This document shows positions 7,005 to 49,766 of a stretch of DNA of 64,000 bases, in pieces. Each line of letters starts with the position of its first letter. Within the stretch, counting starts at the first letter, position 1. The DNA comes from Escherichia coli (lineage in GTDB: Bacteria > Pseudomonadota > Gammaproteobacteria > Enterobacterales > Enterobacteriaceae). Position numbers and translations under genes: made by a program. A model generated the notes under the pieces. It saw only the letters and a list, made by a program, of their open reading frames with translations, did no database searches and was not told where the DNA came from. The stretch is taken from NCBI RefSeq assembly GCF_044324875.1, contig NZ_CP172185.1; one strand, given 5' to 3'.

Positions 7005-7031
7005 TTTTCCGTTTTCTTTAAGGAGACATAC

Positions 7032-7397: not shown

Positions 7398-7415
7398 TCC
7401 ACCAGAGGGCTGTTT

Positions 7416-9342: not shown

Positions 9343-10810
9343 GTCCAATACCCTGGTGAAATTTGTGGTACCTGCTGTGGTACTGGCGGGGCTGGTGATC
9401 ACGATGAAAAGCTGCAGCACACCGGAGAGCGGGAGTGAGAGTACAGCACAGAGCGGTGCGCTGGCCGGATTATCGTCAGAAGAGCTGCGTGCGCTGGGCG
9501 TGGAAGGGGACACGCCGGAGGATACCCTGCGGACCCTGGTTGCCCGCCTGAACCAGGTCAGGGATAACCAGAAAACGCTGGAGAGCCAGAATGCGCAGTT
9601 GCTGAAGGACAACGAACAACTGCGTCGCCGGGGGACGGATGTGTCCGGCCAGGTCAGTGAAGCCGTGGCGGGAATGCAGAAAACCTACGATCAGAAGCAG
9701 CGTGAACTGCAGGAGCAGCAGCGCTCCCTGATGTCGCAGATTGATGTGCTGCGGGGGCAACTGAGTGACCAGCTGACGGGAAGTCACACGAAGCTCAGCG
9801 ATATTCCTGACGGGCTGGGACTGGATTCAGGCAGTGGTTCCGGGTCGTTGATCTCGCAGGGGGCGGACGGGCTGATGTGGGTGAGTCCGGCCGATCAGTC
9901 ACAGGATGATCCGCTGAGCAGCGGCGGAAAGAGCGGTCCGCGTTTTCCGACCTCCTTCCTTGAAGATAACCCCCTGACCCGGCAGAAAGCAGCCTATGAG
10001 CAGCAGGTGAAGGGGTACAGCAATGAGCAGCAGGCGGCCACCACGCAGGCCGTGTACACCCTGCCGGAGAACTCAACCCTGACGGGCAGCCGTGCCATGA
10101 CGGCCCTGCTGGGCAGGGTGCCGGTAAACGGCACGGTGACCGATCCGTATCCGTTCAAGATCCTCGTGGGGCGCGATAACCTCACGGCAAACGGCATTGA
10201 ACTGCCGGATGTGGAGGGGGCTGTGGTGTCAGGGACGGCCAGCGGTGACTGGACGCTTTCCTGTGTGCGCGGACAGGTGAACAGCATCACCTTTGTGTTT
10301 GCTGACGGCACGGTACGCACGCTGCCACAGGCGGATGTGAACGGTACCACCAACAGCAATCAGCAGGCGAAAAACGGGAATAACGCAGGCGGGATTGGCT
10401 GGATTTCGGATGAGGATGGGATCCCGTGTATCAGCGGCACCCGTAAATCCAATGCGTCAACCTACCTGCCGACGATATTCGGGCTGGCCGCAGCCGGCGC
10501 GGCAGGGGATGCCCTGAGTGAGGGGCAGTACACCTCGCAGAACAATGTCAACGGTATAACCTCGACGCTGACCGGCAGTGCCGGTGAAGCGGCGCTGGGT
10601 AAGGCCCTTTCCGGCGGGATGAATGAGACCGCGGACTGGGTAAGACAGCGTTACGGGCAGACCTTTGATGCCATTTATGTGCCGCCGGGAAAAACGCTGG
10701 CCGTTCACATTACCCGTCAGCTGGCGATTGATTATGAAGAGCGTGGACGTCGTGTGCGTTATGACTTCACCCTGCCGGGAGAAGCGGGCGACCGGGGCGG
10801 CCTTGACTGA
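9332..10810 (+). CDS. ICE mating-pair formation protein (VirB10/TraB-like candidate)
   Basis: N-terminal TM anchor, coiled-coil region, Gly/Ser-rich linker, C-terminal domain. Confidence 0.5.
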   Translation: MQIKSNTLVKFVVPAVVLAGLVITMKSCSTPESGSESTAQSGALAGLSSEELRALGVEGDTPEDTLRTLVARLNQVRDNQKTLESQNAQLLKDNEQLRRRGTDVSGQVSEAVAGMQKTYDQKQRELQEQQRSLMSQIDVLRGQLSDQLTGSHTKLSDIPDGLGLDSGSGSGSLISQGADGLMWVSPADQSQDDPLSSGGKSGPRFPTSFLEDNPLTRQKAAYEQQVKGYSNEQQAATTQAVYTLPENSTLTGSRAMTALLGRVPVNGTVTDPYPFKILVGRDNLTANGIELPDVEGAVVSGTASGDWTLSCVRGQVNSITFVFADGTVRTLPQADVNGTTNSNQQAKNGNNAGGIGWISDEDGIPCISGTRKSNASTYLPTIFGLAAAGAAGDALSEGQYTSQNNVNGITSTLTGSAGEAALGKALSGGMNETADWVRQRYGQTFDAIYVPPGKTLAVHITRQLAIDYEERGRRVRYDFTLPGEAGDRGGLD

Positions 10811-10827
10811 ACAGGGAGAATGAGTCC

Positions 10828-11232
10828 GTGAAACGATTACTGTTCGTGATGAGTGTGGCACTGGTGCTGTCGGGCTGTGCCACCTCTAAAGAAGAGCTGC
10901 TGCCTGCCGGAGAGCAGACGATGCTGGAGCTCTGGCAGGGTAAAACCGCAGGTGGCGGTCAGCGGCATGCGCTGGCCGCCCGGGAAACGTTGCGCCGTCC
11001 CCTTACGGTAACGGAGCAGCAGGGGATGAACGCGGAGGCGTACAGCTACAGCCGGACGCAGGAAAGCGAAATCAGCCAGCAGTTTCCGCGTCTGCCGAAT
11101 CCCGACATGGTGATGTATGTGTTTCCGCATCTGGCCGGCGGTACGTCGCCGGTTCCGGGCTACAGCACGGTATTTCCTTTTTACAGCAGGACGCAGTATG
11201 CGCTGCCAGGTGAGCGTACGGAGGCTCTGTAA
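10828..11232 (+). CDS. conjugal transfer lipoprotein (TraV-like)
   Basis: lipobox LSGC at residues 15-18. Confidence 0.55.
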   Translation: MKRLLFVMSVALVLSGCATSKEELLPAGEQTMLELWQGKTAGGGQRHALAARETLRRPLTVTEQQGMNAEAYSYSRTQESEISQQFPRLPNPDMVMYVFPHLAGGTSPVPGYSTVFPFYSRTQYALPGERTEAL

Positions 11233-14081
11233 TGACATTCTCGCTTTTCAGACGCCGTGAGGAAAAAGGTACAGCAGAGACCAGGGAACGACCGGAAGCA
11301 GAAGCGGGGGCATCTTCATCGGCCTTTGTTCCGCCCTGTCCTCCGGGGGCACAGCCCCTGCGACGTCCGGGACAGATGACCCGTGATGCTGAGGCGGCGG
11401 TTTATCATGCCGGTCCGTCGGTTATTGATTTTCTGCCATGGGTGGAATATCTGGATGAGGAGCAGTGTCTGCTGCTTGACGACGGGGTGTCGGTGGGAGC
11501 GGTCTATTCGGTGACGCCGGCCGCAACGGAAGGGCGTACGGAAGAGCGCCTGGCGCAAATCAGGGACATGGTGGAGGATGCCCTGCAGGACAGTTTTGAT
11601 GAGTACGACACGCATCCCTGGGTGGTGCAGTTCTACTGTCAGGATGAAAATGATGTGGATGCGTACCTGGACTATCTGAAGGGGTATGTGAAACCCCACG
11701 CGCAGGGAACGGCATTCACGGAGGCCTGGCTGGGTGAAATGGCCCGCCATCTCAGGGGGATTGCCCGTCCTGAGGGACTGTTTACGGACACCCTGGTCAC
11801 CGGTCAGCCCTGGCGGGGACAGCAGCGACGAACCCGGATGGTGGTTTACCGTCGTATCGGGAAGAACAATAACGATCCGATGTCGCCGGTGGCGATGCTG
11901 AACCAGGTCTGCGACCGCGTGGTGTCCGCACTGGGTGGAGCCGGTATCCGCTGTACCCGGATGAACGGTCAGCAGGTGCACAGCTGGCTGCTGCGGTTAT
12001 TTAATCCGGCACCGGACTGGATTGCCCGTGAAGAGCTGTACCGGATGGCCTCACGGGTTGATCCGCGTGAGCGTGGTGATGATGTGATGCCGGTGATGAC
12101 GGATTTTGCCGAGAGCCTGTGGTTTAACCCGCCGTATTCCGATCCGGAGAACGGGGTGTGGTGGCTGGACGCCATGCCGCACTGTGCCGTGGTGGTGGAA
12201 AAGCTGCGTACGCCGCCGGAGCCGGGGACCATCACCGGAGAGATGCCCCGTGGGGAAAAAACGGTGAATGCGCTGATGGACACCTTTCCGGAGGGAACGG
12301 TGATGTGCATGACCATCGTGGTGCAGCCCCAGGACACCCTGGAGGACCGTTTCACCCGGCTGTCGAAAAATGCGGTGGGTGAGAACACGGAATCCATCCG
12401 GGCGCGTCAGGACGTGAAGGTGGTGAAGGAGCTGCTGGGGAACCGGCACAAGCTGTACCGGGCAGGGCTCACCTTTCTTCTGCGGGCAGAGGATATGGAC
12501 AGCCTGAAACGCCGGCGTGTGGAGCTGACCACGGTGCTTCTGGGGGCTGGTCTGCAGCCGGTGCGGCCTGAGTTTGACGTGGGGCCGCTGAACAGCTGGC
12601 TGCGGGCGCTGCCGATGTGTTTTGATCCGGATACGGACAAAAAGCAGTGGTACACGCGTCTGATGTGGGTACAGCACATGGCAGGATTGTTGCCGGTGAC
12701 CGGCCGGGATACGGGGACCGGACATCCGGGGTTCAGTTTTTTTAACCGGGGTGGTGATGTGCTGACTTTCGATCCGCTGAACAAGCTGGACCGTACCCAG
12801 AACGCGCATCTGCTGCTGTTCGGACCAACGGGGGCCGGTAAATCGGCCACGCTGTGTGCTTCACTGTCGCAGGTGATGGCAGTACACCGTCCCCGCCTGT
12901 TCATTGCCGAAGCGGGGAACTCGTTTGGTCTGCTGGCCGATTATTTTGAGAGTCTCGGGCTGTCGGTGAACAAAATCAGCGTCAGACCGGGAACCGGTGT
13001 GACCCTGCCGCCGTTTGCAGATGCGCATAAACTGGTTGAGGAAGGGCAGGATCTGCAGTGCGTGGATGAGCACTCACTGCCTGATATTGAGGATGAAGCC
13101 GGGGATGAAGGGGAGGATAAACGAGACATTCTGGGCGAGATGGAAATCTCAGCCAGGATGATGATCACCGGGGGGGACCCGAAAGAAGAGGCCGCGCTGA
13201 AGCGTGCGGACAGGGCGATGATCCGCGAGGCGCTGCTGATGGCCACACACCGGACATACCGTGAGGGGCGGCAGATGCTGCCGGAGGATTTGCAGTCCGC
13301 CCTGTGGGAGATCTCCCGTGACAGCAGCCGTAACGATGTGCGCAATGCAAAGGCGGCGGAGATGGCGGAGTCTCTGGGGATGTTCACCCAGAAGGGGAGT
13401 TTTGAGGCGGAGTTGTTCAACCGTGAGGGCGAACTGTGGCCGGAAGCGGATGTGACGCTGATTGACCTGGGGCATCTGGCCCGTGAGGGGTATGAGGCAC
13501 AGATGGCGCTGACCATGGTGTCGATGACCAACATGATCAATAACATTGCCGAACGTGATCAGTATCTGGGGCGTGACATCGTGTTTGCGGTGGATGAGGC
13601 GCATATCGTGACGGTCAATCCGCTGCTTTCGCCGTACATGACGAAGGTTGTGAAGATGTGGCGTAAGCTGGGAGCGTGGCTGTGGCTGGCGACACAGAAC
13701 CTGAAGGATTATCCGGATGTGTCGGAGAAGATGCTGAATATGGCGGAATGGTGGGTGTGTCTGACGATGCCACCGGAGGAAGTGAACAACATTGCACGCT
13801 TTAAATCACTGACGGAAGAGCAGAAAGCGGTGCTGATGTCGGCGAGTAAGCTGTCCGGCTGTTATACCGAAGGCGTGGTGCTGGCGAAACAGATTGAGGC
13901 GCTGTTTCGTGCGGTGCCGCCAAGTCTCTATCTGGCGCTGGGCATGACGGAGAAAGAAGAGAAGGCTGAGCGGCGCATGCTGATGAAGGAACATAACTGC
14001 AGCGAACTGGAGGCGGCGTTCCATGTGGCGCGTAAGCTGGACAGGCTGCGTGGTCTGTCGGCCATGGAGGCGGATGTATGA
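11232..14081 (+). CDS. traC: conjugative transfer ATPase (VirB4/TraC-like), ICE class
   Basis: 949 aa; Walker A GPTGAGKS; Walker B-like FAVDEAH. Confidence 0.8.
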   Translation: MTFSLFRRREEKGTAETRERPEAEAGASSSAFVPPCPPGAQPLRRPGQMTRDAEAAVYHAGPSVIDFLPWVEYLDEEQCLLLDDGVSVGAVYSVTPAATEGRTEERLAQIRDMVEDALQDSFDEYDTHPWVVQFYCQDENDVDAYLDYLKGYVKPHAQGTAFTEAWLGEMARHLRGIARPEGLFTDTLVTGQPWRGQQRRTRMVVYRRIGKNNNDPMSPVAMLNQVCDRVVSALGGAGIRCTRMNGQQVHSWLLRLFNPAPDWIAREELYRMASRVDPRERGDDVMPVMTDFAESLWFNPPYSDPENGVWWLDAMPHCAVVVEKLRTPPEPGTITGEMPRGEKTVNALMDTFPEGTVMCMTIVVQPQDTLEDRFTRLSKNAVGENTESIRARQDVKVVKELLGNRHKLYRAGLTFLLRAEDMDSLKRRRVELTTVLLGAGLQPVRPEFDVGPLNSWLRALPMCFDPDTDKKQWYTRLMWVQHMAGLLPVTGRDTGTGHPGFSFFNRGGDVLTFDPLNKLDRTQNAHLLLFGPTGAGKSATLCASLSQVMAVHRPRLFIAEAGNSFGLLADYFESLGLSVNKISVRPGTGVTLPPFADAHKLVEEGQDLQCVDEHSLPDIEDEAGDEGEDKRDILGEMEISARMMITGGDPKEEAALKRADRAMIREALLMATHRTYREGRQMLPEDLQSALWEISRDSSRNDVRNAKAAEMAESLGMFTQKGSFEAELFNREGELWPEADVTLIDLGHLAREGYEAQMALTMVSMTNMINNIAERDQYLGRDIVFAVDEAHIVTVNPLLSPYMTKVVKMWRKLGAWLWLATQNLKDYPDVSEKMLNMAEWWVCLTMPPEEVNNIARFKSLTEEQKAVLMSASKLSGCYTEGVVLAKQIEALFRAVPPSLYLALGMTEKEEKAERRMLMKEHNCSELEAAFHVARKLDRLRGLSAMEADV

Positions 14082-14464
14082 TGTGTCTGAAATACCCGAA
14101 ACCGGAGGTGATGACAGAGGTCATGCCCGGGGGCAGCGTGTTTTTTCTGCCGCCGCAGGGAAAACCGGGTGTTGCGGATCTGGCGCAACCGCATCTGCAG
14201 CGCCTGCGGTCACAGCTTGAACGCAGGCTGGGTACGCTGCATCGTGTGGTGTGTCAGCCCCAGCGGGTGGGGCAGAGCAGCAGTGTGGCCGTGACAGCAG
14301 AAGGGGCGTGTGGCGAGGTGCATCTTCTGCTGACAGTAGGGGGGCATGAGAGCTGGCCCTCTGAAGAGGAATACCGGCATCCGCGCTGGTATATCCAGGT
14401 GGTGGATGCGGCCGATCTGTTCTACCTGCTGCTCTGGCTGTGTGATGGCGGGCAGGAAGCGTGA
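14078..14464 (+). CDS. ICE hypothetical protein; last 62 bp duplicated downstream of iha
   Basis: start overlaps traC stop; C-terminus VVDAADLFYLLLWLCDGGQEA repeated at 16806-16870. Confidence 0.4.
   Translation: MMCLKYPKPEVMTEVMPGGSVFFLPPQGKPGVADLAQPHLQRLRSQLERRLGTLHRVVCQPQRVGQSSSVAVTAEGACGEVHLLLTVGGHESWPSEEEYRHPRWYIQVVDAADLFYLLLWLCDGGQEA
14399..14460. repeat. direct repeat copy 1 (62 bp) flanking iha insertion
   Basis: 59/62 nt identical to 16806-16867. Confidence 0.8.
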
Positions 14465-14553
14465 AGTAAAAATACTTCCACTGGCAAACTGCTCCAGTGG
14501 AAGTGTATGTAATGTTTTGTTGTTTATTTTAATTTCTTGTAAAACACAAACAC

Positions 14554-14570
14554 TAATTATTCTCATTATT
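14554..14570 (+). promoter_or_regulatory. candidate Fur box upstream of iha
   Basis: TAATTATTCTCATTATT matches about 13/17 of the core of consensus GATAATGATAATCATTATC; 50 bp upstream of ATG. Confidence 0.35.
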
Positions 14571-14619
14571 GTTTAGATTTGTGTATCTTTCGCCCGATTA
14601 ATATAATCGGAGAGAAGAT

Positions 14620-16707
14620 ATGCGAATAACCACTCTGGCTTCAGTAGCCATCCCTTGTCTCGGATTTTCAGTCAGCAGCATGGCTGCGGAAGATGTGATG
14701 ATAGTCACCGCATCCGGCTATGAAAAAAAATTAACCAGTGCAGCTGCGAGTGTTTCGGTGATCAGTCAGGAGGACTTGCGATCCAGCCAGTATCATGATC
14801 TTGGGGAGGCACTGAGATCCGTAGAGGGGGTGGATGTTGAAAGCGGTACGGGTAAAACCGGTGGACTGGAAATCAGCATCCGTGGAATGCCTGCCAGTTA
14901 TACGCTGATACTGATTGATGGTGTCCGTCAGGGCGGGAGCAGAGACGTAACCCCGAACGGTTTTTCTGCCATGAACACGGGGTTTATGCCACCTCTGGCC
15001 GCCATCGAACGTATTGAGATTATCAGGGGCCCCATGTCCACTCTGTACGGCTCTGATGCCATGGGGGGCGTGGTGAATATCATCACCAAAAAGAATGCAG
15101 ACAAATGGCATTCTTCAGTTAATGCCGGGCTGAACCTGCAGGAAAGTAACAAATGGGGGAACAGCAGCCAGTTTAATTTCTGGAGCAGCGGCCCCCTGGT
15201 GGATAATTCTCTCAGCCTGCAGGTACGTGGCAGCACGCAGCAGCGACAGGGCTCATCGGTCACATCACTGAGCGGCACCTCAGCCACGCGCATCCCTTAT
15301 CCAACAGAGTCACAGAATTATAATGCAGGTGCTCGTCTTGACTGGAAAGCAACGGACAAGGATATGTTCTGGCTTGATATGGATACTGCACGACAGCGTT
15401 ATGATAACCGGGACGGCCAGCTGGGCAGCCTTACTGGCGGTTATGATCGTACCCTGCGCTATGAACGTAATAAAATTTCGGCAGGTTATGATCATGCATT
15501 CACCTTCGGAACCTGGAAGTCATCCCTGAACTGGAATGAGACGGAAAATAAAGGCCGTCAGCTTGTACGCAGCGTACTGAAGCGTGATAAATGGGGACTT
15601 GCCGGCCAGCCGAGGGAGCTTAAGGAGTCGAATTTTATCCTGAATTCCTTACTGCTTGCACCTGTGGGTGAATCTCACCTGGTTACTGTCGGTGGTGAGT
15701 ACCAGAACTCATCCATGAAAGACGGGGTTGTTCTCACCAGTACAGGCGAAACCTTCCGGCAGAAAAGCTGGTCGGCATTTGTTGAGGATGAGTGGCATAT
15801 CACGGATGCGGTTGCACTGACTGTGGGCAGTCGTTATGAACATCATGAGGTGTTCGGAGGACACCTCAGTCCGCGGGCATATATGGTCTGGGATGTGGCT
15901 GATGAGTGGACGCTGAAAGGTGGGGTGACCACGGGATATAAGGCACCCGGCATGGGGCAGTTACATAAGGGGATCAGCGGTGTGTCCGGTCAGGGGCGTA
16001 CGAATCTTCTCGGTAACCCGGACCTGAAGCCGGAGGAGAGTGTCAGCTATGAAGCGGGCGTGTATTACGATAATCATGCCGGTCTGAACGCCAATATCAC
16101 GGGCTTTATGACAGAGTTCTCCAACAAGATCGTATCTTATTCTATTGATGATAATACCCGCAGCTATACAAACAGCGGAAAGGCCAGGACTCAGGGTGTG
16201 GAGTTTGCCGGCACACTGCCTCTGTGGTCAGAGGATGTGACGCTGTCTCTGAATTATACCTGGACGCAGAGTGAACAACGGGATGGGGATAATAAAGGTG
16301 CACCACTGAGTTACACCCCTGAGCATATGGTGAATGCGAAACTGAACTGGCAGATTACTGAAGATGTGTCATCATGGCTGGGTGCCCGTTACCGCGGGAA
16401 AACGCCACGTTTCACCCAGAATTATTCGTCACTCTCAGCTGTACAGAAGAAAGTGTATGATGAGAAAGGTGAATATCTGAAAGCCTGGACGGTACTGGAT
16501 GCGGGCATGTCGTGGAAAGTGACGGATGCACTGACGCTGAATGCAGCGGTGAATAATGTGCTTAACAAGGATTACAGTGACGTAAGTCTGTATCGTGCCG
16601 GCAGTGGTACGCTTTATGCGGGTGATTACTTCCAGACGGGGGCATCGACAACAGGTTATGTGATACCGGAGAGAAATTACTGGATGTCGCTGAGCTATCA
16701 GTTCTGA
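14620..16707 (+). CDS. iha: TonB-dependent outer-membrane siderophore receptor/adhesin, Iha/IrgA-like
   Basis: 695 aa; signal peptide; TonB box EDVMIVTAS; plug motif IEIIRGPMSTLYGSDAMGGVVNIITKK; C-terminal YQF; N-terminus matches recalled Iha sequence. Confidence 0.75.
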   Translation: MRITTLASVAIPCLGFSVSSMAAEDVMIVTASGYEKKLTSAAASVSVISQEDLRSSQYHDLGEALRSVEGVDVESGTGKTGGLEISIRGMPASYTLILIDGVRQGGSRDVTPNGFSAMNTGFMPPLAAIERIEIIRGPMSTLYGSDAMGGVVNIITKKNADKWHSSVNAGLNLQESNKWGNSSQFNFWSSGPLVDNSLSLQVRGSTQQRQGSSVTSLSGTSATRIPYPTESQNYNAGARLDWKATDKDMFWLDMDTARQRYDNRDGQLGSLTGGYDRTLRYERNKISAGYDHAFTFGTWKSSLNWNETENKGRQLVRSVLKRDKWGLAGQPRELKESNFILNSLLLAPVGESHLVTVGGEYQNSSMKDGVVLTSTGETFRQKSWSAFVEDEWHITDAVALTVGSRYEHHEVFGGHLSPRAYMVWDVADEWTLKGGVTTGYKAPGMGQLHKGISGVSGQGRTNLLGNPDLKPEESVSYEAGVYYDNHAGLNANITGFMTEFSNKIVSYSIDDNTRSYTNSGKARTQGVEFAGTLPLWSEDVTLSLNYTWTQSEQRDGDNKGAPLSYTPEHMVNAKLNWQITEDVSSWLGARYRGKTPRFTQNYSSLSAVQKKVYDEKGEYLKAWTVLDAGMSWKVTDALTLNAAVNNVLNKDYSDVSLYRAGSGTLYAGDYFQTGASTTGYVIPERNYWMSLSYQF

Positions 16708-28944: not shown

Positions 28945-29187
28945 TGTCGCTTCGGCGACCACCAATGTTCCATGAGGCCTGTGAGGAACGCCTTCGGGTG
29001 GCCCACGTCGCTCCGGCGACCACCAATGCTCCATCTGACCTGTGAGGAGCGCCTTCGGGTGGTCAGTTTTACACCTCCGTAGCCTGAAAGGAGCTGTGCG
29101 TGCTGATGGGATATGTTCCCGGAAGTACGGGTAAATCTGCACACCTTTGCGAGCAGATGTCACCACGGTTTACGTGATGATGAAGGC
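28945..29187. repeat. 244-bp direct repeat copy A with internal 48-bp tandem sub-repeat
   Basis: about 95 percent identical to 31740-31983. Confidence 0.8.
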
Positions 29188-29921
29188 ATTCCGGATTTCG
29201 TCCGGTACTTTTACTTTTTCTCAGCAGACTTTCATAAAAATGCTTTATGGATCTGCTTCTTAAGATGTTTTCTGGCTTTCCGCATAAGCTTCTTATGACT
29301 GTGCGCACGGCATAAGGCCATTTGAAATTTGGCCGCTTGCGTGTGTACGTGGATTTTGAAGCCTTGCGGCGTCACTTGAGTGCGACCGTAGGGAACACCA
29401 AGTGACGCCACAACAATCTGCCCTGAAAGCAGCATCACGTAAGGCCAGCCAGAAAATCGTCGCTCGTGACCAGCGTTCTGATGACCGTTTCGTCTGTCTG
29501 ACAGCGTCTTTCAGTAACGTGTCCATGCCTTTCCGGCGCGTCCGTTTTCACGGACGGCCACGCCGGAATGTCTTTTTAAACTTCATAATACATGAGAGGT
29601 AAGTGTATTAACTTGTTGAAAAAAGGAATAAATATGAAAAATCGTTCTGAAGTCGGAAGGCGTCATCGTAAGATGACGGGGAGTAAAAAATCGCCCTGGT
29701 GCACAGGTAGCGAACTCCTGTAAAAACTCAACATGTGCAAGCTCTGCTACATCGACATCAAACGAGCCAGGAAGGCGAGCAACCGCGTTACAGAGCCGTC
29801 CGTGATGACGAAAAACTAACAATATCAACGATCTGGTCTGTTTATCGGAAGGGCATCTCATGCAGTTGAACTTTCAGAACGGATGGTTTTCTGCATCTTT
29901 TTTAACAGGGGGATTGACGTT

Positions 29922-31739: not shown

Positions 31740-31983
31740 TGTCGCTTCGGCGACCACCAATGTTCCATGTGGCCTGTGAGGAACGCCTTCGGGTGGCCCA
31801 CGTCGCTCCGGCGACCACCAATGCTTCATCTGACCTGTGAGGAGCGCCTTCGGGTGGTCAGTTTTACACCTCCTGAGCCTGAAAGGAGCTGTGCGTGCTG
31901 AAGGGATATGTTCCCGGAAGTACGGGCAAATCTGCGCACCTTTGAGAGCAGATGTCACTGCGGTTTTCCGTGATGATGAAGGC
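31740..31983. repeat. 244-bp direct repeat copy B
   Basis: pairs with 28945-29187. Confidence 0.8.
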
Positions 31984-39268: not shown

Positions 39269-42184
39269 TTACTGAGTCAGTTTTTTTATCAGGTCGTGAA
39301 TTTTATCACCTGAAAACTGGGTCATGAAAGTTATCTTTATGGATTTACTGATTTGTTCGAAGAGTTTCTGTGCATGTTTTATTTTATCGCGTTCTTCATG
39401 TCTGAGTTCACGTTTGCCATCAACATTTTTGGTTTCAATAATAAGGTTCAGATAATCACCCTTTGACGTGTTTACAACATAAGCGAAGTCAGGGGAGTAA
39501 GTGTATCCTCCCGCTACAGGAATTTTTATTGAATTTTTGGGGATCTTTGTGAAGACAATGACTGACCTGACCTCACCCTCTGTCATATTGAGTTTTTCAA
39601 GTTCTGAATCATAAAATACTTCTTCAAAAAGATAAGAGTCCAGTGGAGGGCTTGTATTATCCTGTAAAACGCCAAGATCACTTGACAATACATCAGCAAG
39701 ATAACCGCCGTCTGCATTGGTGAATTTCGTGGGATGGACAGTTCCTGATATTACATTATACCCAAGGCTGAATTTACTGAACGAGTTATTAAGCAAATAC
39801 TTGCTGAAACCAGATTTAATTTTTCTGATTGTCTGAATGTTAAGGTATTCAGTTATATTTATGATGTCTTTTATATCACAAAAAACCTTATGCATGGTGT
39901 CATGTTTGACAAAAATAGTCTGTGATAATTTATCAAGGAATTCACGATAGCTCATTGTGTTTATTTTGTGAAAATTATCCTCATCAACACTGAGAATGCT
40001 TTTCGACATTGCCGTATCATTATGGATATAAATTCTTTCAATACGAGTATGAGCACCGGATTTGGTAAATCTGTCTGCTTCTTCCAGCATAAACGCTCTG
40101 AAAAGGGATAAAAACTCACGTTCACTTTTTATTTTATACTCAATCACGACCTTTTGATTGATCAAGTCCCATAGTTCTTTCAGCTCACTGAACTTACCAA
40201 CACGCATTTTAGTGCGTCTTTTTCCATCAGAGGCTTTTTTTATTTTGCCTGGTTTCACTCCTGCAGGAAATGCTGCCGGATATCTGGCTTTTAAGCGGCT
40301 ATAGGCATCTGAATCTTTGAAGTTATCATTATCATCAATGATCTCATCATCAAAAATTTCATTCAAGAGTGTTCTGGAGGAAAGCTCCGGATATTGAGAC
40401 AGGATTTTATCCTTAAGTTCCTGAGTAAACTTACCTGGAACAGTCTCTTTGAAAGAACTATCGTTGATCTCTTTGACAAGAGAATCGACAAAATCTTTTT
40501 CTGTAAAATCAACATAATAGTTGAGGGTAAAATTGCGGTCTTTCACACGACACATGTATTCATTCACCGGAAGACGTAAACCACGCCCTACTTCCTGAAG
40601 TTTAGATGTGGTGCTACCGCTCGAACGGAGCTTACAAATCTGAAAGACATTTGGGTTATCCCATCCCTCACGCAACGTCCATTTAGAGAAAATGAAACGG
40701 CGAGGATTTTCTAAAGACAATAGAAGCTCTTTATCATGAAGGATTTCGTTGATTTCCTGCTCAATTTTATCATCTTTATCACTATTATCTTTTGAAAAAT
40801 AACCACCATGAACAGAAGATATATCCTTAACAGTTTTTTCAAGGTAGTTTCTGTAAAACTCATCTTTTTCTGTTTTTAACAGTTCATTTGCTTCTGCCAA
40901 AACGTATTCTTCGAACTTAGTTTTCAGGCTTCCTGCAATATCATTACCATCACGATAGCCTTCAATGTCATCAATGAAGAAAAGAGTAAGAGGTTTTATG
41001 CGTGGCCTTTGTGTCAGATACTCTTTTTCTAACTTAAAGTGTTCTTTGACAGCTTTACGTATCATGTTATCAGCAAGTGTCTGATCGTAAGAATAGGGGT
41101 TTATCGAACTACCAATTTTTAGCTCAATACCATTACTCAACACTGCTGTATTCTTATTTAAAGCATCAAGAGTTAAATCATGGATCGCACTATGCGTCTT
41201 AGATAGTGATTCACCTTTGGCTAACTTAAAAATTTTTTTATTATTATTTTCGTTCAGTTCAAATGTAGCTTCTTTTCCGTCAGATTTGACCAACTTGAGG
41301 TTGGCATTACCATCACCAACTATATCCTCAATGTATGCATCAATACCTTTAACAAGATCTTCATTGAAGGCATCTACGGCTGTAAGACGATAAACTAAGT
41401 TCTTATATCCTTCACTAAAGGTTGCACCATAGCGGATGATATATTGGGCATTAAATTTTTGAATATGTTCCCATGTCTTTTTACCAGTAGGAAATTTATG
41501 AGGCTCATCAATGATAATGAATGGTTTTATCGCACTAAGTGCAGAAAATGGGGTATCAAACTGATTATTAAGCAAGCCAACATCATAAGTGTCAGTTAAA
41601 GACTTAGAGTTAATCATCCCTGAATTGATCACAAGAATGTGTATATATTTCTTATTGAAATTACTTGCTTCAACAAAATCATGGATAGCTTGAGGCATAT
41701 ACGATTTTGTATTTTTACCCGAACGTTTCTGACTTTCAACAACGTAAGTCTTTAGTTCACGCTCGTAATCATCTCGAAAGTGTTCTTTTATAGCATCGCT
41801 TTTTAAAAAGTTAACGGTTCCGGCTTTGATCGATAGGGTAGGAACAATGATGATAAACTTGTTAATACCAAATGATTTGTTCAGGTCAAAAATTGTTTTG
41901 GTGTAAGTATAAGTTTTACCTGTACCTGTCTCCATAGAAACATCAATTACGTTGCTTTTAGCATCGTAATTATCTTTTGAGTGCTCAATACCATTGAACT
42001 CCTGAACATTTTTTATGTTGTTGTAGTATTGTTGTTCAGATAGATTCAGTTCTGGATTAGCTAACAGGCGAATTGCAACATGATCCGTCTGATGAGGTAT
42101 GGCGGATACAAAGACATTCATTACCGAATCAACGCCAGCCTTTTGATGAGGTAAATTTTTTTCGAATGTGAACCCTTTAGACAT
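39269..42184 (-). CDS. res: Type III restriction enzyme, Res subunit
   Basis: 971 aa; Walker A METGTGKT; DEAH-like IIIDEPH; immediately downstream of mod. Confidence 0.8.
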   Translation of the reverse strand: MSKGFTFEKNLPHQKAGVDSVMNVFVSAIPHQTDHVAIRLLANPELNLSEQQYYNNIKNVQEFNGIEHSKDNYDAKSNVIDVSMETGTGKTYTYTKTIFDLNKSFGINKFIIIVPTLSIKAGTVNFLKSDAIKEHFRDDYERELKTYVVESQKRSGKNTKSYMPQAIHDFVEASNFNKKYIHILVINSGMINSKSLTDTYDVGLLNNQFDTPFSALSAIKPFIIIDEPHKFPTGKKTWEHIQKFNAQYIIRYGATFSEGYKNLVYRLTAVDAFNEDLVKGIDAYIEDIVGDGNANLKLVKSDGKEATFELNENNNKKIFKLAKGESLSKTHSAIHDLTLDALNKNTAVLSNGIELKIGSSINPYSYDQTLADNMIRKAVKEHFKLEKEYLTQRPRIKPLTLFFIDDIEGYRDGNDIAGSLKTKFEEYVLAEANELLKTEKDEFYRNYLEKTVKDISSVHGGYFSKDNSDKDDKIEQEINEILHDKELLLSLENPRRFIFSKWTLREGWDNPNVFQICKLRSSGSTTSKLQEVGRGLRLPVNEYMCRVKDRNFTLNYYVDFTEKDFVDSLVKEINDSSFKETVPGKFTQELKDKILSQYPELSSRTLLNEIFDDEIIDDNDNFKDSDAYSRLKARYPAAFPAGVKPGKIKKASDGKRRTKMRVGKFSELKELWDLINQKVVIEYKIKSEREFLSLFRAFMLEEADRFTKSGAHTRIERIYIHNDTAMSKSILSVDEDNFHKINTMSYREFLDKLSQTIFVKHDTMHKVFCDIKDIINITEYLNIQTIRKIKSGFSKYLLNNSFSKFSLGYNVISGTVHPTKFTNADGGYLADVLSSDLGVLQDNTSPPLDSYLFEEVFYDSELEKLNMTEGEVRSVIVFTKIPKNSIKIPVAGGYTYSPDFAYVVNTSKGDYLNLIIETKNVDGKRELRHEERDKIKHAQKLFEQISKSIKITFMTQFSGDKIHDLIKKLTQ

Positions 42185-42186
42185 GA

Positions 42187-44223
42187 TTAGTTTCTTACCA
42201 CCAAATCTAAATCAATAGATTTTTTATTAGCATAACTTTTTAGTGCTTCATTGAGTTCCATCTGTTTCGCACTTTCGAAGTTGCTGCCATAAAATACAAC
42301 TTTGTTAGGGGCAAAGTCTTTGTCTGCATCCAGCTTTTGAAGTAAAGCTTTCAAAGCCTCACTTGTGAAATTAGGCGCAATTAGATATAGCCGACCATCG
42401 CACAAGTGTGCTTTGTAGCCATTAAGGTCAATATCTTCAATTGGTGTTGTTAGCAAGCTGCCATCATACACGCACCATGTCGTCAATAGAGTGTCATACT
42501 GCTCTGGTGTCAATACAGCATCGTCAAAGAAACTAAGATTAGAAAGCGTAAGTTCAGACTCATCTTTCACTCGAAAATTATGAACTGTTTCAAATATTTT
42601 AAATCCCAAATCTCCATTATAATTAGGATTATCTTTTTTCAGCTTTTTTCCTGCCTTAATAATTCTGTCTTTTGTTATATTGAAGATGGATTTATACCCT
42701 TCTTTATAGGCTTGTTTCTTTTTATCTGTTTCTTCATCTAATTGAACACAGATGAAGTTTCTTTTCCTGCCGTCTTCAATATTTAACTCCAGAATACCAT
42801 GAGCTGTAGTTCCAGAGCCAGCAAAAAAGTCAAGATAAATGTCTTTATCTTCGGTTTTTACTGAACCAAATAGTGTTTTTATTAAACTTGTTGGCTTCGG
42901 GTAGGAGAAATATCCTTTCCCACCAAAAAGATTTTCAACCTCAACACCACCATCACTTTTAGTTGAAATAATTGATCTTAGTAAAAACTCTTCAACTTCA
43001 TCTAAAAATTTAACCGAACTGGGTTGGGTGTTTTCTGTACTGGCAAACCAAATTCCACCACAAATAACGCTACCATCATGTAGTTTTTTGATATCTGCAT
43101 ACTTTCCATCTATTCTTTTTGCAATATGATTAAAAGTGCCTTCTTTCCAACGCCAGCCTCTGTCTGGGATTTTGACAGGGTTATTAGTCAAAGGGTGCAA
43201 TACTTCATACGTGGGTCCAAATGAATCTGCATTAGGCCAGCTCATATTAATTTTACCCCATGGCCTATAATCTTCGTTCAAACAGTTGTAAAGAGTAATT
43301 CCACGATCATATCCGTTGGAGCTGTAGAATTTTTTGAGTTGCTGCTCTGCTTTATCTAATGGCACCTTCTCCTTTTTTAACTTTTCAATAAACTGATATA
43401 CATCATCAATACCATCTTTCCGCATTAAAAATTCTTTACTTATTTCGTTATTCTTCGCATAAGCAAGGATGTACTCATGGATATTACCAATACCCTTATC
43501 ATTTTTAGGGATACGTTTATTCCATACAATATTTTCTATGAAATTTGCTTCGCCAAAAATTTCATCACAAATAGTTTTAAGTTGATTTAATTCATTTTCG
43601 TCAATCGAAATAAATATCACACCATCTTCACGTAGAAGCTCACGAGCAATATATAAACGAGGATAAATGAACGTTAACCATGCGCTATGGCTGCTTGAAC
43701 CATTCGTGGTAAATTCAAGTATACGTTTAGCCTCATCAAGATCGATACCTGCCAGATCAGAAAGCTGTTCAGGTGTAAACTTGCGATCATCGTTATAGGC
43801 GAATCCATCCTTACCTGTATTGTATGGTGGATCAATGTAAATCATCTTCACCTTTTCAGAGTAAGCATTAACCATATGCTTCAATACTTCGAGGTTATCC
43901 CCTTTGATTAACAGATTCTGACTGTTTTTGTTCTCTTCACGTTGGTTATGGTCTTTATCTTCGGAGAGTAATGTCTTCGGCGGCAAGTTAGCTAACAGAC
44001 GGGCATAGGATTTACCAAGCCAGTTCAGGCTGTATGATTCTTTGGAGAGTTCAACATCCGATGATTTGACGATTTCAAGCAATTTTTCCTGAATGAACGC
44101 TCCATTTTTATCAAAACACTGTGGAAAGTTAGCCTTTAAAATCGCAAGCTGTTTACTGTTTGTGGTTTCAGTTTCAGAGAAAAGAGTTTCTTTTTTCAGT
44201 TGAAATTGGGGTTGTGTATTCAT
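42187..44223 (-). CDS. mod: Type III restriction-modification methyltransferase, Mod subunit
   Basis: 678 aa; DPPY motif (IYIDPPYNTG); AdoMet motif FFAGSGTT; GGAGG RBS. Confidence 0.8.
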   Translation of the reverse strand: MNTQPQFQLKKETLFSETETTNSKQLAILKANFPQCFDKNGAFIQEKLLEIVKSSDVELSKESYSLNWLGKSYARLLANLPPKTLLSEDKDHNQREENKNSQNLLIKGDNLEVLKHMVNAYSEKVKMIYIDPPYNTGKDGFAYNDDRKFTPEQLSDLAGIDLDEAKRILEFTTNGSSSHSAWLTFIYPRLYIARELLREDGVIFISIDENELNQLKTICDEIFGEANFIENIVWNKRIPKNDKGIGNIHEYILAYAKNNEISKEFLMRKDGIDDVYQFIEKLKKEKVPLDKAEQQLKKFYSSNGYDRGITLYNCLNEDYRPWGKINMSWPNADSFGPTYEVLHPLTNNPVKIPDRGWRWKEGTFNHIAKRIDGKYADIKKLHDGSVICGGIWFASTENTQPSSVKFLDEVEEFLLRSIISTKSDGGVEVENLFGGKGYFSYPKPTSLIKTLFGSVKTEDKDIYLDFFAGSGTTAHGILELNIEDGRKRNFICVQLDEETDKKKQAYKEGYKSIFNITKDRIIKAGKKLKKDNPNYNGDLGFKIFETVHNFRVKDESELTLSNLSFFDDAVLTPEQYDTLLTTWCVYDGSLLTTPIEDIDLNGYKAHLCDGRLYLIAPNFTSEALKALLQKLDADKDFAPNKVVFYGSNFESAKQMELNEALKSYANKKSIDLDLVVRN

Positions 44224-44432
44224 AACGCACCTCCAGAATGCACGGAGGTACTTGACGCGGAATTTTTATACAGGCATATTGTTGCGTTGCGTTGCGTTGC
44301 GTTGCGTTGCGTTGCGTTGCGTTTCGTTGCGTTGCGTTGCGTTGCGTTGCGTTGCGTTGCGTTGCGTTGCGTTGCGTTGCGTTGCGTTGCGTTGCGTTGC
44401 GTTGCGTTGCGTTGCGTTGCGTTGCGTTTCAT
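44220..44432 (-). CDS. repeat-encoded leader ORF (QRNAT)n overlapping mod start
   Basis: ATG at 44432 followed by the 5-mer tract; TGA overlaps mod ATG as ATGA. Confidence 0.35.
   Translation of the reverse strand: MKRNATQRNATQRNATQRNATQRNATQRNATQRNATKRNATQRNATQRNATICLYKNSASSTSVHSGGAL
44281..44425. repeat. pentanucleotide microsatellite (GTTGC)x29; GCAAC on mod strand
   Basis: 29 tandem units with one GTTTC variant. Confidence 0.9.
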
Positions 44433-44514
44433 TAAATAGCCTCGAGTTTCGTTTTACAGGTTTTTATTCTAACCTGAATTGTTGATTTTCTGAATAAGTC
44501 TGACGTCAGTTGTT

Positions 44515-44680
44515 ACGGGAAGGTATCAGAGTGGCTAGATGCACTGTGGCACGTCTCATGGCGGTTATGGGGCTTGCCGGCGTTCTCCGGGGGGTAAAGC
44601 TCCGTGCTACTGTCACCTGGAACGCCGTTGCCGCAGGCGACCGCGTAAACCGTCTGTACCGCCCGGGCCCAATATTAAGA
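44515..44680 (+). pseudogene. IS3-family (IS629-like) transposase OrfB N-terminal fragment
   Basis: GIRVARCTVARLMAVMGLAGVLRG... resembles IS3-family OrfB; no start or DDE core. Confidence 0.35.
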
Positions 44681-44709
44681 ACTAACGTCATACCAGGGAC
44701 GTTGTCTGA

Positions 44710-45723
44710 ATGGATGAGAAGCTAAAACATGCGGATTTATCGTCTTTGCCAGAGCAGGTGAGGGTTGCCGCTAGGGAGCTTGTTGACCTGAAGTTTCGTA
44801 TCGATATGGCAGCAAGAGGCGGTACGTCAGGGATACCACTTGACCTGCATGGGAGGATGACAGGAGGAGAATGGGGGCCGCATTGCGGGCTGGAATTTTT
44901 CTGCAGCATCATTCCTTTTTTCCCGCGAGATTTTGAAACCTGTTCAGTAACTGAAATGTTGGTTCCTACCTTACATACCTTCGGCTGCAACTGGCGTTGG
45001 TGGCCCGATCGTTATTGTAGCGACAAAGATGAACACTATATACGGCGTCACATTTTTTCTGATTACGGGCTGAAAAGTACGAGCTATACCTTCATTCCTC
45101 AGTTGGGATTGTTCTGCCCGAGTGAAGGTAAAAATCGTGTTAACTTCTGCCGCCATCACGGTATCGAATATATCCCCGCACAGGTTTATTCCCATGATTA
45201 CCCAGAAGCAAATCGAATCTCTGTGTACGTTCAGGATACTGCCGGAGGGCTGGATGTGTGGGCCGTTCTTGATAATCGCTATGTTCAGAAGGTTACTCAC
45301 TATGCCTTTGCGCTCCCACTTTTGTGCGCTTATGGGGTAGAGTTCCCAGGTAAGTGGCCAGCAGGATGGCCATCGATATCGGACCTCCTGGCTAATCAAC
45401 TGTGTTGCACTGATGACACAACCTTTCATAAACCCGTGATCGATATGCAAGCTGTCAGGGATACGCTGGATCGTGATGAGAACAGCAGAGAGGATGGGGA
45501 GATGTATGTCAAAACCAATGTGGTTGAGCTGCCGCTGGCCGGGCTGGTTCGCTTCATTCTGATCGCAATGTTACTGAGTTTAGGTGCGTTGTTCATCCAC
45601 GAGGTACTGGATGAGGGAAGCCTGTCCAGGATTGCACTGGGAATAAGCACTTTCACGGCTGGCGTGGTTGCTTCGTTTTTTATCCCAGCGTTCCGTATCA
45701 AGAAAAAATATCTTCGCAAATAG
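44710..45723 (+). CDS. hypothetical protein with C-terminal membrane anchor
   Basis: 337 aa, Cys/Trp/His-rich domain then two hydrophobic helices. Confidence 0.4.
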   Translation: MDEKLKHADLSSLPEQVRVAARELVDLKFRIDMAARGGTSGIPLDLHGRMTGGEWGPHCGLEFFCSIIPFFPRDFETCSVTEMLVPTLHTFGCNWRWWPDRYCSDKDEHYIRRHIFSDYGLKSTSYTFIPQLGLFCPSEGKNRVNFCRHHGIEYIPAQVYSHDYPEANRISVYVQDTAGGLDVWAVLDNRYVQKVTHYAFALPLLCAYGVEFPGKWPAGWPSISDLLANQLCCTDDTTFHKPVIDMQAVRDTLDRDENSREDGEMYVKTNVVELPLAGLVRFILIAMLLSLGALFIHEVLDEGSLSRIALGISTFTAGVVASFFIPAFRIKKKYLRK

Positions 45724-45739
45724 TTGTGGCATTTCTTGA

Positions 45740-45993
45740 ACACTTTTTCGAGACAGGTTCAACCGCAGGCATTCAGGCCAAACATGCGGTTAAACTACGT
45801 ATTCAATTAACTGCCCTAAATATGGCTAAGCGCCCGGACGATATGTCTGTCTGCACCTAGGTGGAAATTACACCCTCTAAAGGGAGCTGATCTTAGAGGT
45901 CATTGGGAAATATCAGTAAACTCTAACTGGCGAATTACCTTTCGATTTGAAGGCGAAGACGCAATTCTGGTTGACTATCAGGATTATCATTGA
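45740..45993 (+). pseudogene. HigB-like (RelE/killer family) toxin gene, frameshifted
   Basis: C-terminus KLHPLKGADLRGHWEISVNSNWRITFRFEGEDAILVDYQDYH; N-part in another frame ending TAG near 45858. Confidence 0.45.
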
Positions 45994-46001
45994 GGGATAA
46001 C

Positions 46002-46746
46002 TGAACCGCCCCGGGAATCCTGGAGACTAAACTCCCTGATAAAGAGGTAAACAGAATGACTAAAAATACTCGTTTTTCCCCCGAAGTCCGTCAGAGGGCG
46101 ATTCGTATGGTTCTGGAAAGTCAGGGCGAATATGACTCACAGTGGGCGGCAATTTGTTCCATTGCCCCAAAGATTGGCTGTACACCGGAGACTCTGCGTG
46201 TCTGGGTACGCCAGCATGAGCGGGATACCGGAGGCGGTGATGGCGGGCTCACCACCGCTGAACGTCAGCGTCTGAAAGAGCTGGAACGTGAAAATCGTGA
46301 ACTGCGCCGCATCGTCTATGGAAACGACATTCGTGCTGGATGCTCTGGAGCAGGCGTTATGGGCCCGTCGACCGTCCGGCACAGTCCATCACAGTGATAA
46401 AGGTTCTCAGTATGTATCGCTGGCCTACACACAGCGGCTTAAGGAAGCCGGATTACTGGCATCAACAGGAAGTACTGGTGACTCGTATGACAACGCGATG
46501 GCGGAGAGCATCAATGGCCTTTACAAAGCGGAGGTAATACACCGTAAGAGCTGGAAAAACCGGACAGAAGTGGAGCTGGCCACACTCACGTGGGTGGACT
46601 GGTATAACAATCGACGATTGCTGGAAAGGCTGGGCCATATCCCACCGGCAGAAGCAGAAAAAGCTTATTATGCTTCCATCGGAAACGATGATCTGGCAGC
46701 CTGAGTTCACAGATAAAACACTCTCCAGGAAACCCGGGGCGGTTCA
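46002..46746 (+). mobile_element. IS629-like (IS3 family) element with internal deletion
   Basis: terminal inverted repeats TGAACCGCCCCGGG...; OrfA 46056-46380 joined to OrfB C-terminus (to 46704); flanked by AAC/AAC. Confidence 0.6.
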
Positions 46747-46750
46747 AACT

Positions 46751-46959
46751 ATGAGTCGTATTCATAATCCCGCCACTCAGGCGCGGTTCTTCGTGAAGAT
46801 CTGGGAGATATGTCAGTCACAGACGCTGCCACCGCATTGGGCATTACTCGCACGGCGCTTTCCCGGATTCTGAACGAAAAAGCGGGTATTTCTGCGGATA
46901 TGGCGCTCCGTCTGGAATCAGCACTCGGAACCAGCGCCGAAATGTGGACAGGTATGTAA
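46751..46959 (+). pseudogene. HigA-like HTH antitoxin gene, frameshifted
   Basis: MSRIHNP... then frame switch to ...ALGITRTALSRILNEKAGISADMALRLESALGTSAEMW. Confidence 0.4.
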
Positions 46960-47159
46960 TCACAGTATGAGCTTTGGGTTGCTTCGCAAACTGCTCGCCC
47001 AAACATTCGCCCATTATTTCACCATGCCTGACATGCATTCCCCAACATTGGACGGGGAGCCGTCATGGAGGGGGCTACGCAGGAACCGCCGAAAGCACGC
47101 TGTTTTATATTTGTTTTATTGAATATAAGAGGAGGCCATAAAACGGCCCCCTTGTTTTT

Positions 47160-48944: not shown

Positions 48945-49766
48945 TTACCAGGGGGATAACGGAACCCTGAATAACGCAGTGGGTAATATTTTTCCTGTTA
49001 TCAGATATTCTGCCTGTGCCGGAGTGAGTGTTACGGCGCGAACAGGGATATCCGGAGATATTTTTCGGGCCATCTGAAACCAGCCTTCTTTTTCTATATC
49101 CATTCTGACCGGATATAACGAAAGTACCGGATAAATAATGGTGTTATTAATTTCTTTTTTCTGCCTGAGCAGAACGCCGCAATATTCTCCGGAATGCGTT
49201 CCGGCAAACGGAAAACCATGCCAGAGAATAATGTCCATATTCTCGCGGGCTGAAATAATCCTGCAGAATATCTCCTGTGTGGCTGGCCAGTCTCCCGGAC
49301 GATACAGTGGATAATGCACCCTGCCGTTCAGCCATTCCGGACTGAGATAAAACCAGTCAGCCAGTGCTGCAAGAATCTCCCCGCTCAGATAGTCAGTGAG
49401 TCTGTCCGGCTCCCGGAAGACGGCAGGGCGGATATTCCAGGGGGCCAGTAATGCAGCCATCGTTGTTGCGCTGATATCATGTGCCTGCATGATGTGCTCC
49501 ATCCTGCTGAGAAGACGGCGGACGATGTTATCTGCAGGAAGAAACATTTCACTTAACGCGTCTTCGACCAGGATACGCGTCAGGTCAGAGACGGAAAGAG
49601 AAAGCTGTTCGCTCATGATACCAAGGGCATCCCTGACTCCCTGCGGATAACGAACCTGCAGGGGTGTGGACTGCAGCTGGCGATGACTGAGCAGGCATTC
49701 GCAAATTCGCTCCCTGTCCAGGGAGAGCATCATACGGGCGGCAATACCTGTGCTGTCAGTTTTCAT
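48945..49766 (-). CDS. hypothetical protein
   Basis: 273 aa ORF between OMP gene and rci. Confidence 0.35.
   Translation of the reverse strand: MKTDSTGIAARMMLSLDRERICECLLSHRQLQSTPLQVRYPQGVRDALGIMSEQLSLSVSDLTRILVEDALSEMFLPADNIVRRLLSRMEHIMQAHDISATTMAALLAPWNIRPAVFREPDRLTDYLSGEILAALADWFYLSPEWLNGRVHYPLYRPGDWPATQEIFCRIISARENMDIILWHGFPFAGTHSGEYCGVLLRQKKEINNTIIYPVLSLYPVRMDIEKEGWFQMARKISPDIPVRAVTLTPAQAEYLITGKILPTALFRVPLSPW

Follow-up and report, generated by a model that had tools for sequence, protein, structure and literature searches.

A membrane-tethered protein with a predicted ParB/Srx-type domain, carried largely by conjugative plasmids and integrative elements

Architecture of the protein and its gene

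The 64,000-nucleotide stretch of Escherichia coli DNA analysed here (contig NZ_CP172185.1, called the window below) contains on its plus strand, at 44710..45723, a complete open reading frame (ORF) of 337 codons plus stop, which begins with ATG in the window's ORF list and corresponds to RefSeq WP_000343645.1, a 'hypothetical protein'. The N-terminal sequence (MDE.LK.ADLS.L) is kept across the homologs, and the assigned start codon is therefore taken to be right. Judged from sequence comparison, this is a genuine gene, with 47 close and 236 distant cluster representatives and a ratio of nonsynonymous to synonymous substitution rates (dN/dS) of 0.25 against a plasmid copy of 93.5% identity. The same ratio is 0.21 for the part encoding the soluble domain and 0.39 for the transmembrane (TM) part. 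A preliminary description of the locus, made from the sequence alone, had called the soluble domain rich in cysteine, tryptophan and histidine. The enrichment is real (C 3.8%, W 2.7%, H 4.2%), but it does not amount to a motif: C147, C93 and H150 are conserved at only 13%, 39% and 17% in the wide family, no cysteine or histidine is kept, and W95, W97 and W216 are the sole conserved residues of this set. A metal or redox site built from cysteines and histidines is ruled out because these residues are not conserved.

The core of the soluble domain was assigned through structure prediction, as the preliminary description had proposed. The AlphaFold model of residues 1–262, built on 36 diverse homologs, has a pLDDT of 92.3 and a pTM of 0.89, and its top 30 Foldseek matches in the PDB are almost all proteins of the ParB/Srx fold, with probabilities up to 0.96 and weak E-values of 0.03–0.4. 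They include the Bacillus subtilis ParB–CDP complex, human sulfiredoxin, Noc, PadC, the N-terminal domain of pNOB8 ParB, KorB, SerK, 1vk1 and Atu1540. The matching core comprises residues ~76–165 (44935..45204), with strands at 80–86, 125–129, 134–139 and 154–161 and helices at 105–115 and 141–149; four strands, two helices and a conserved arginine agree with the published definition of the superfamily (PMC5512222). Where the second helix begins, after the third strand, lies a predicted nucleotide-phosphate loop, E139-G140-K141-N142-R143 (45124..45138), which was located by conservation and alignment register. Each of its five residues is at least 90% conserved among 70 diverse members with a mean identity of 21%. 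G140 and R143 supply the G-x-x-R signature of the superfamily, in register with GERR, GCHR and DGMTR. The other near-invariant positions among the 70 members are K28, D32, P69, F70, G92, L132, V144, Y164, P165, L187, Y208, G209, W216, P217 and P221.

Profile alignments place the loop in the same register, each of them weakly. With hhalign, the family profile aligns to sulfiredoxin over residues 83–162 (76 columns), with EGKNR on GGCHR and P = 0.03, and to ParB with GKNR...GIEYIPAQV on the Box II segment GERR...GLDTVPAIV and P = 0.014; the sulfiredoxin and Spo0J query sequences were confirmed against PDB entries. DGMTR of R388 FiwA/Osa falls in the same register as EGKNR, without significance. 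Sequence and profile searches of the PDB returned nothing relevant. Because these weak alignments agree with one another and with the predicted structure, we assign the core to the ParB/Srx fold, an assignment that we consider very probably correct. The preliminary description had seen no recognisable motif, a statement that the fold and its G-x-x-R loop now supersede. K28, D32 and E139-G-K-N-R143 together form a candidate active site.

On either side of the core are two regions that have no counterpart among the matches. The N-terminal region (residues 1–75, 44710..44934) was delimited by model secondary structure and conservation; it contains a long helix at 15–36, which bears the near-invariant K28 and D32, and then a loop with P69-F70, and Foldseek against the PDB found no structural neighbour for it. 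The C-terminal subdomain (residues 166–262, 45205..45495), a β-hairpin sheet with helices, is specific to the family and likewise has no significant structural neighbour in the PDB by Foldseek. It is acidic, with an isoelectric point (pI) of 4.5, and the invariant pairs Y164-P165, Y208-G209 and W216-P217 are reported with it.

The soluble domain is followed by two hydrophobic segments, as the preliminary description had said and as hydropathy and AlphaFold now agree. By hydropathy they comprise residues ~277–299 (45538..45606) and ~307–328 (45628..45693); in the model both are helical, at 276–299 and 304–328, and form a hairpin. Directly after the second helix comes a lysine- and arginine-rich tail, RIKKKYLRK (45694-45720), which is predicted to be cytoplasmic. 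No signal sequence was found at the N-terminus. Among 139 full-length family representatives, at least 113 (at least 81%) possess the hairpin. Its loop is short (median 8 residues) and acidic, and the tail has a mean of 3.6 lysines or arginines within its first 15 residues. By the positive-inside rule, the short acidic loop and the basic tail imply that both the N-terminal domain and the tail would be cytoplasmic.

The Aeromonas homologs keep the domain and lack the hairpin. This TM-less version, of 276 residues, occurs on plasmids including pAsa4 and begins 11 nt after a soluble ORF of 213 residues (positions 5348-5989 and 6001-6831 of locus L007; 8339-9822 of locus L025). Its C-terminal tail, KKKGYGTIYKLINFFLK, may form an amphipathic helix that binds membranes. 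A split architecture, with the anchor on the neighbouring polypeptide, is ruled out, since the upstream 213-residue ORF has no TM segment; its matches to DUF6988 and DUF5677 are sub-threshold only. Because the hairpin is the least conserved part of the protein by dN/dS and is dispensable in Aeromonas, we favour reading it as an anchor or localisation device rather than as a killing effector.

The family, its carriers and the host element

Searches of Pfam, NCBIfam, PADLOC and PHROGs gave no match to the 337-residue protein at E ≤ 1 (for the defence models, PADLOC-DB 2.0.0 at E ≤ 1, no family), and Pfam searched with 70 family members gave nothing at E ≤ 0.1, with scattered chance matches only. 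Relatives are nevertheless numerous. A word-indexed search recovered the 47 close clusters and an exhaustive profile search the 236 representatives at 50% identity, mostly of 330–380 residues and most of them aligning through the C-terminal hairpin; the last profile search yielded 112 clusters, every one without a Pfam domain and named 'hypothetical'. A scan of reference genomes with the alignment of close homologs found three loci only. The named hosts are confined to Gamma- and Betaproteobacteria; among them are E. coli, Enterobacter, Serratia, Salmonella, Yersinia, Erwinia, Buttiauxella, Aeromonas, Vibrio, Pseudomonas, Halomonas, Stenotrophomonas, Burkholderia, Cupriavidus, Delftia, Vogesella and Azonexus. 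According to the preliminary description, clear homology to a housekeeping or prophage structural family would have spoken against its view of the gene. None appeared in PHROGs or NCBIfam, and no homolog was found by tblastn in 50,697 phage genomes or in the 2.9 million viral contigs of IMG/VR.

Plasmids are the main carriers. Homologs were found by tblastn on 78 of them, 52 typed conjugative and 9 mobilizable, from Pseudomonas (35), Aeromonas (15), Burkholderia (10), Serratia (7), Cupriavidus (4) and Vibrio (3). Integrative and conjugative elements (ICEs) carry the gene in E. coli, Salmonella, Burkholderia pseudomallei and Delftia. Apart from some chromosomal copies, the range of the family is largely limited to the plasmids, ICEs and genomic islands found in Gamma- and Betaproteobacteria.

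On these elements the gene is found beside transfer genes in some cases and among conflict genes in others. It lies 26 nt downstream of a MOBP relaxase gene and beside a PLD nuclease gene on an IncI-like Enterobacter plasmid, directly downstream of a MOBP relaxase of the same kind in Erwinia, between a TraI_2 (MOBH) relaxase gene and ArdC/KlcA-type anti-restriction genes in a Salmonella ICE, and within the transfer cluster of mating-pair formation class G (MPF-G) in a B. pseudomallei ICE. On a Serratia plasmid it begins 5 nt after SMODS-SLATT_6, and in S. marcescens another gene occupies that slot. Shedu, SIR2 and HNH genes are near it on pMOL28 (Cupriavidus); Abi_2-like, CoiA nuclease and STAND NTPase genes in Vibrio UBA2441; AcrVA2-like genes, Fic/RhuM and GmrSD_N in Vibrio tasmaniensis; and H-NS, anti-restriction and integrase genes on a Burkholderia plasmid. 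Caspase and Mrr genes are among the further conflict neighbours. When the ORFs within 5 kb of 18 loci were clustered, no recurring partner gene emerged, and the sole repeat neighbours were a tyrosine recombinase (3 loci) and a relaxase (2). In Stenotrophomonas rhizophila the gene is chromosomal and conserved within the species, adjoining thioredoxin-like and homogentisate-pathway genes.

In the Delftia ICE (6092-16125 of locus L033) the family gene stands between a DNase/immunity pair, whose toxin is a PAAR-pyocin_S DNase, and a five-gene system of GASH, DO-GTPase2, DO-GTPase1, GAP1-N1 and EAD1-caspase. In Serratia, the cargo between a tyrosine recombinase gene and the family gene differs between plasmids (6066-7995 of locus L027 versus 9051-9926 of locus L016): one has an SMODS+AGS_C nucleotidyltransferase with a SLATT_6 effector, the other a 291-residue protein with a weak nucleoside 2-deoxyribosyltransferase-like match. 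The slot constitutes a small defence hotspot bounded by the family gene and an Rpn nuclease gene.

The window itself is part of an ICE of the TIGR037xx/PFL_4xxx type (MPF-G) at tRNA-Phe, with genes for a type IV pilus, TraD, a TraI_2-type relaxase and an integrase adjoining tRNA-Phe. The slot of the 337-codon gene lies between an ArdA/LPD29/DUF1281 array and traF, and the interval from DUF1281 to traF (38.2–47.6 kb of the window; loci L034, L035 and L036) is a variable cargo hotspot in E. coli, nearly empty in 5CRE51 and holding three genes of unknown function and a methyltransferase remnant in 181.1. The gene is present in 8 of 5,426 complete E. coli genomes, and a marker of the ICE backbone in 41–65. 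Three Rfam motifs, two STAXI and one EFASI, lie on the plus strand, at 28945-29117, 29642-29764 and 31740-31911. These structured RNA or single-stranded DNA motifs typically lie beside ssb, anti-restriction and integrase genes, and here, where they precede ArdA and the 337-codon gene in the same orientation, they are probably markers of the ICE's leading region. A conserved ORF of 273 residues on the minus strand (48945-49766), between traF and the integrase gene, has no Pfam match and is 'hypothetical' in every ICE copy seen.

Upstream of the gene, both on the minus strand, are the mod (42187-44223) and res (39269-42184) genes of a Type III restriction-modification (R-M) system. The preliminary description had placed the gene next to this system. 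In strain SCU-171 the same R-M system occupies the same ICE slot and the 337-codon gene is missing; homologs elsewhere, moreover, have no R-M neighbour. Membership of the R-M system is ruled out on these grounds. The system has some peculiarities of its own. The res gene is intact in the window (971 residues), but its counterpart in strain TUM1886 is annotated with a frameshift, which means that some carriers are losing the restriction arm. A perfect GTTGC pentanucleotide tract of 29.6 copies (44281-44428) lies 58 nt upstream of the mod start codon (ATG at 44223, minus strand), and strains with the same ICE have 25.6 copies (TUM1886) and 19.6 copies (2015C-3121). The tract is thus a hypervariable repeat of the mod promoter or leader, and the methyltransferase may therefore be phase-variable.

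The position of the gene between the mod leader and a decayed toxin–antitoxin pair was correctly described before, except that two remnants of IS3-family insertion sequences had been overlooked. The first (44504-44659, by RefSeq annotation and blastn) lies between the mod leader and the gene. Downstream of the gene follow a frameshifted relE pseudogene (45708-45993), the second IS3-family remnant (46003-46746; orfA and a truncated orfB), an insertion that, by comparison with strain 2015C-3121, separates relE from higA, then a decayed, frameshifted higA pseudogene (46751-47031) and the remnant of an autotransporter gene, the two pseudogenes being so annotated in RefSeq.

Proposed role and alternative explanations

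What could such a protein do for the element that carries it? We propose a membrane-tethered, NTP-dependent conflict factor, acting in Osa-like fertility inhibition or in defence, and we regard the case for it, drawn by analogy, as evenly balanced. The protein would be a stand-alone accessory product of conjugative elements, whose cytoplasmic ParB/Srx domain would be held at the inner membrane by the C-terminal two-helix hairpin, with both termini in the cytoplasm. The domain would bind ATP or CTP and then hydrolyse it or transfer its phosphate at the membrane, and the protein would serve its carrier in conflict with rival conjugative elements or phages. We favour this role because the family has three marks of a conflict gene on mobile DNA: it is largely confined to conjugative plasmids and ICEs, its distribution is patchy, and the cargo hotspots in which it lies also harbour toxin genes and genes of defence and anti-defence. 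The strict tie to conjugative elements suggests plasmid–plasmid conflict at least as much as phage defence. The abortive-infection or defence role mentioned in the preliminary description would also fit the neighbourhoods, with their Shedu/SIR2, SMODS-SLATT, STAND NTPase, caspase, GTPase and R-M genes.

Several observations weigh against the proposed conflict role. None of the sequence-based methods gives a significant match to ParBc, to Osa or to a chain in the PDB. The soluble domain is acidic (pI 5.5; family median 5.9), which disfavours non-specific DNA binding or a DNase role; of all features this charge is the hardest to square with a DNase mechanism like that of Osa. Seventeen of the carrier plasmids are typed non-mobilizable, and some chromosomal copies, as in S. 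rhizophila, have no obvious mobile context. Defence, toxin or anti-defence genes lie within 5–8 kb in most of about 20 sampled loci, a small sample without statistical control and confounded by the cargo hotspots of plasmids and ICEs. The remaining points concern the window copy. Its upstream region has been replaced by an IS3 remnant, and a scan for promoters and terminators around the gene, upstream region included, found nothing above chance. The E. coli ICE copies also have asparagine at position 94 (codon 44989-44991), within a GCSW motif, where the other 35 of 36 close homologs have serine; the S94N substitution may weaken the protein.

These last points raise the question of whether the window copy is a silent or decaying passenger, a cassette cut from a relaxase operon by IS3 with its promoter left behind. 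The gene lies in a 1,079-bp module (44655..45733, plus strand) that shares 93.5% identity by blastn with the Enterobacter asburiae plasmid NZ_CP134640. Homology begins within what is, on the plasmid, the 3′ end of the MOBP relaxase gene, 55 bp ahead of the ATG, and the upstream edge of the module abuts the first IS3 remnant, which speaks for such an excision. The lack of a promoter-like site above chance, a weak Shine-Dalgarno sequence, the loss of an otherwise invariant serine at position 94, five nonsynonymous changes against one synonymous change between two E. coli copies, and the fact that the relE, higA and autotransporter neighbours are all pseudogenes point the same way. Against it, the ORF is intact in all eight carrier E. 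coli genomes, the dN/dS relative to the plasmid copy is 0.25, and read-through from the IS3 remnant or an unrecognised promoter could supply transcription. Weighing these, we think it doubtful, though a serious contender, that the copy is silent or decaying; its expression may be poor.

The other explanations concern the function of the family as a whole. If the domain sensed a nucleotide or another cue of infection and the hairpin then oligomerised and permeabilised the inner membrane, the protein would kill the infected cell, and a ligand-binding domain joined to a two-TM effector is indeed a common architecture in defence. The hairpin is kept in most full-length members, the Serratia homolog follows the SMODS-SLATT_6 pair by 5 nt, and homologs elsewhere lie among Shedu/SIR2, STAND NTPase and caspase systems. 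No PADLOC model matches, however; the TM sequence is poorly conserved and missing in the Aeromonas members, the S. marcescens homolog stays where SMODS-SLATT has been replaced, which shows the two to be independent, and the family is missing from prophages and largely tied to conjugative elements. Abortive infection seems to us unlikely for these reasons. We judge it a little less probable still that the protein helps its own element in transfer or establishment, as a relaxosome or coupling-protein factor or through anti-defence or host reprogramming in the manner of HerB/YfjB, a ParB-like protein of the leading region that provides a precedent (PMC13370423). The gene appears co-transcribed after the relaxase gene in the Enterobacter and Erwinia plasmids, adjoins TraI_2 and ArdC in Salmonella, lies inside the MPF-G cluster of B. 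pseudomallei and among AcrVA2-like arrays in Vibrio, and in the window runs in the same direction as the ArdA/LPD29/DUF1281 array and the STAXI motifs. Yet its distribution is patchy, most elements with the same backbone doing without it (8 versus 41–65 E. coli genomes), and it has no fixed place on the element. The side of the origin of transfer on which the IncI-like plasmid carries it is transferred last, and so it is not an early zygotic gene there; the protein has no helix-turn-helix (HTH) DNA-binding domain and no Pfam match, and the family also occurs on non-mobilizable plasmids and chromosomes. Lastly, a membrane phosphotransferase whose physiological substrate is a small molecule or protein, like the free-serine kinases SerK and SbnI or like sulfiredoxin, would be ordinary cargo. 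An acidic domain without a DNA-binding module suits such an enzyme, as does the species-conserved chromosomal copy of Stenotrophomonas with its metabolic neighbours. However, the catalytic cysteine of sulfiredoxin aligns with Lys141 and no cysteine is conserved, no metabolic operon partner recurs in the 18 loci, and the overwhelming mobile-element and conflict context would be left unexplained; a physiological kinase role is the least supported of the alternatives and in our view very improbable.

Whichever role applies, about 236 clusters at 50% identity, all named 'hypothetical protein', have no model in Pfam, NCBIfam, PADLOC or PHROGs, and the predicted fold, candidate active site and topology turn a blank ORF into a testable hypothesis. 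Should the protein block conjugation or phage infection, it would offer a single-gene tool of small size and would help to shape how resistance plasmids spread in Enterobacterales, Pseudomonas, Burkholderia and Aeromonas.

Comparison with known ParB/Srx systems

A role as CTP or ATP switches is emerging for ParB/Srx domains in partition, in the control of transcription, in the reprogramming of hosts by plasmids and in plasmid–plasmid conflict. To this set, a permanently membrane-anchored version limited to conjugative plasmids and ICEs would contribute a new architecture. The superfamily binds CTP or ATP and includes switches (ParB, Noc, KorB, PadC), phosphotransferases (Srx, SerK, SbnI) and NTP-regulated nucleases (Osa, GmrS, DdrB-like ParB) (PMC5512222). 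Some members, such as GmrS/DUF262, DndB and DdrB-like ParB, serve in systems of nucleic-acid conflict (PMC5512222). These have DGQQR or DGQHR as their motif and occur together with HNH or Dnd components, either as fusions or as paired partners; the Pfam and PADLOC models of these defence domains do not match the family. The anti-plasmid sentinels of the Namtar/Attar type, with five TM helices and no ParB domain, are not the same as this protein.

ParB/Spo0J, Noc and KorB (ParBc, PF02195) share the fold in their N-terminal domain and are among the top Foldseek matches, with Box II GERR lining up with GKNR of the family and VPAIV with IPAQV. The differences from these ParB clamps are considerable: the family has neither the HTH DNA-binding domain nor the C-terminal dimerisation domain of ParB, it has no ParA partner or conserved neighbour, and its domain is acidic. 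A partition ParB of the ParABS type is ruled out by the lack of an HTH or ParBc match in Pfam and of a recurring ParA neighbour in the 18 loci; a Serratia plasmid has a complete ParA/ParG system separate from the family gene. Noc is also membrane-targeted. In the family, the link to the membrane is a true C-terminal TM hairpin, as predicted.

Sulfiredoxin, SerK, SbnI and PadC bind nucleotides without a DNA-binding module, as is predicted for the domain described here, and the whole sulfiredoxin fold is covered by the 76 columns of the family profile. Compared with these minimal ParB/Srx enzymes, the family has lysine (Lys141) in place of the catalytic cysteine of sulfiredoxin, adds a 75-residue N-terminal region, a 97-residue C-terminal subdomain and the TM hairpin, and is found on mobile elements rather than in metabolism or redox repair.

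The nearest functional precedent, by analogy, is Osa/FiwA (PF22162), the ParB/Srx-fold ATPase/DNase of IncW plasmids (PMC5696584, PMC5512222), which blocks the transfer of rival substrates by the type IV secretion system (T4SS) at the coupling protein (PMC5696584). By sequence, the family is not a branch of Osa/FiwA: hhalign gives a probability of 0.09% against R388 FiwA and 0.14% against a seven-member profile, PF22162 does not match, and Osa, of 189 residues, has neither the TM hairpin nor the extra N- and C-terminal subdomains. The likenesses are of another kind. Both are solitary accessory genes of conjugative elements with a predicted or known ParB/Srx fold, the Osa/FiwA loop DGMTR aligns with EGKNR, and osa has ArdC and a nuclease gene nearby in R388, as homologs have ArdC in the Salmonella ICE and a PLD nuclease gene on the Enterobacter plasmid. 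Osa, moreover, acts against rival elements at a coupling protein that is itself bound to the membrane (PMC5696584). On this analogy the family might found a single-gene conflict system, in which an NTPase tethered to the inner membrane on its cytoplasmic side would intercept DNA or protein where these enter or leave the cell, at T4SS coupling proteins or at phage injection sites, with fertility inhibition, exclusion of rival plasmids or phage defence as the outcome, by a mechanism related to that of Osa and independently evolved; we put this forward tentatively, as something that may well prove otherwise. ParB/Srx domains in such systems are already known to specialists, and what the present protein adds is an unannotated family with a new architecture within a known superfamily.

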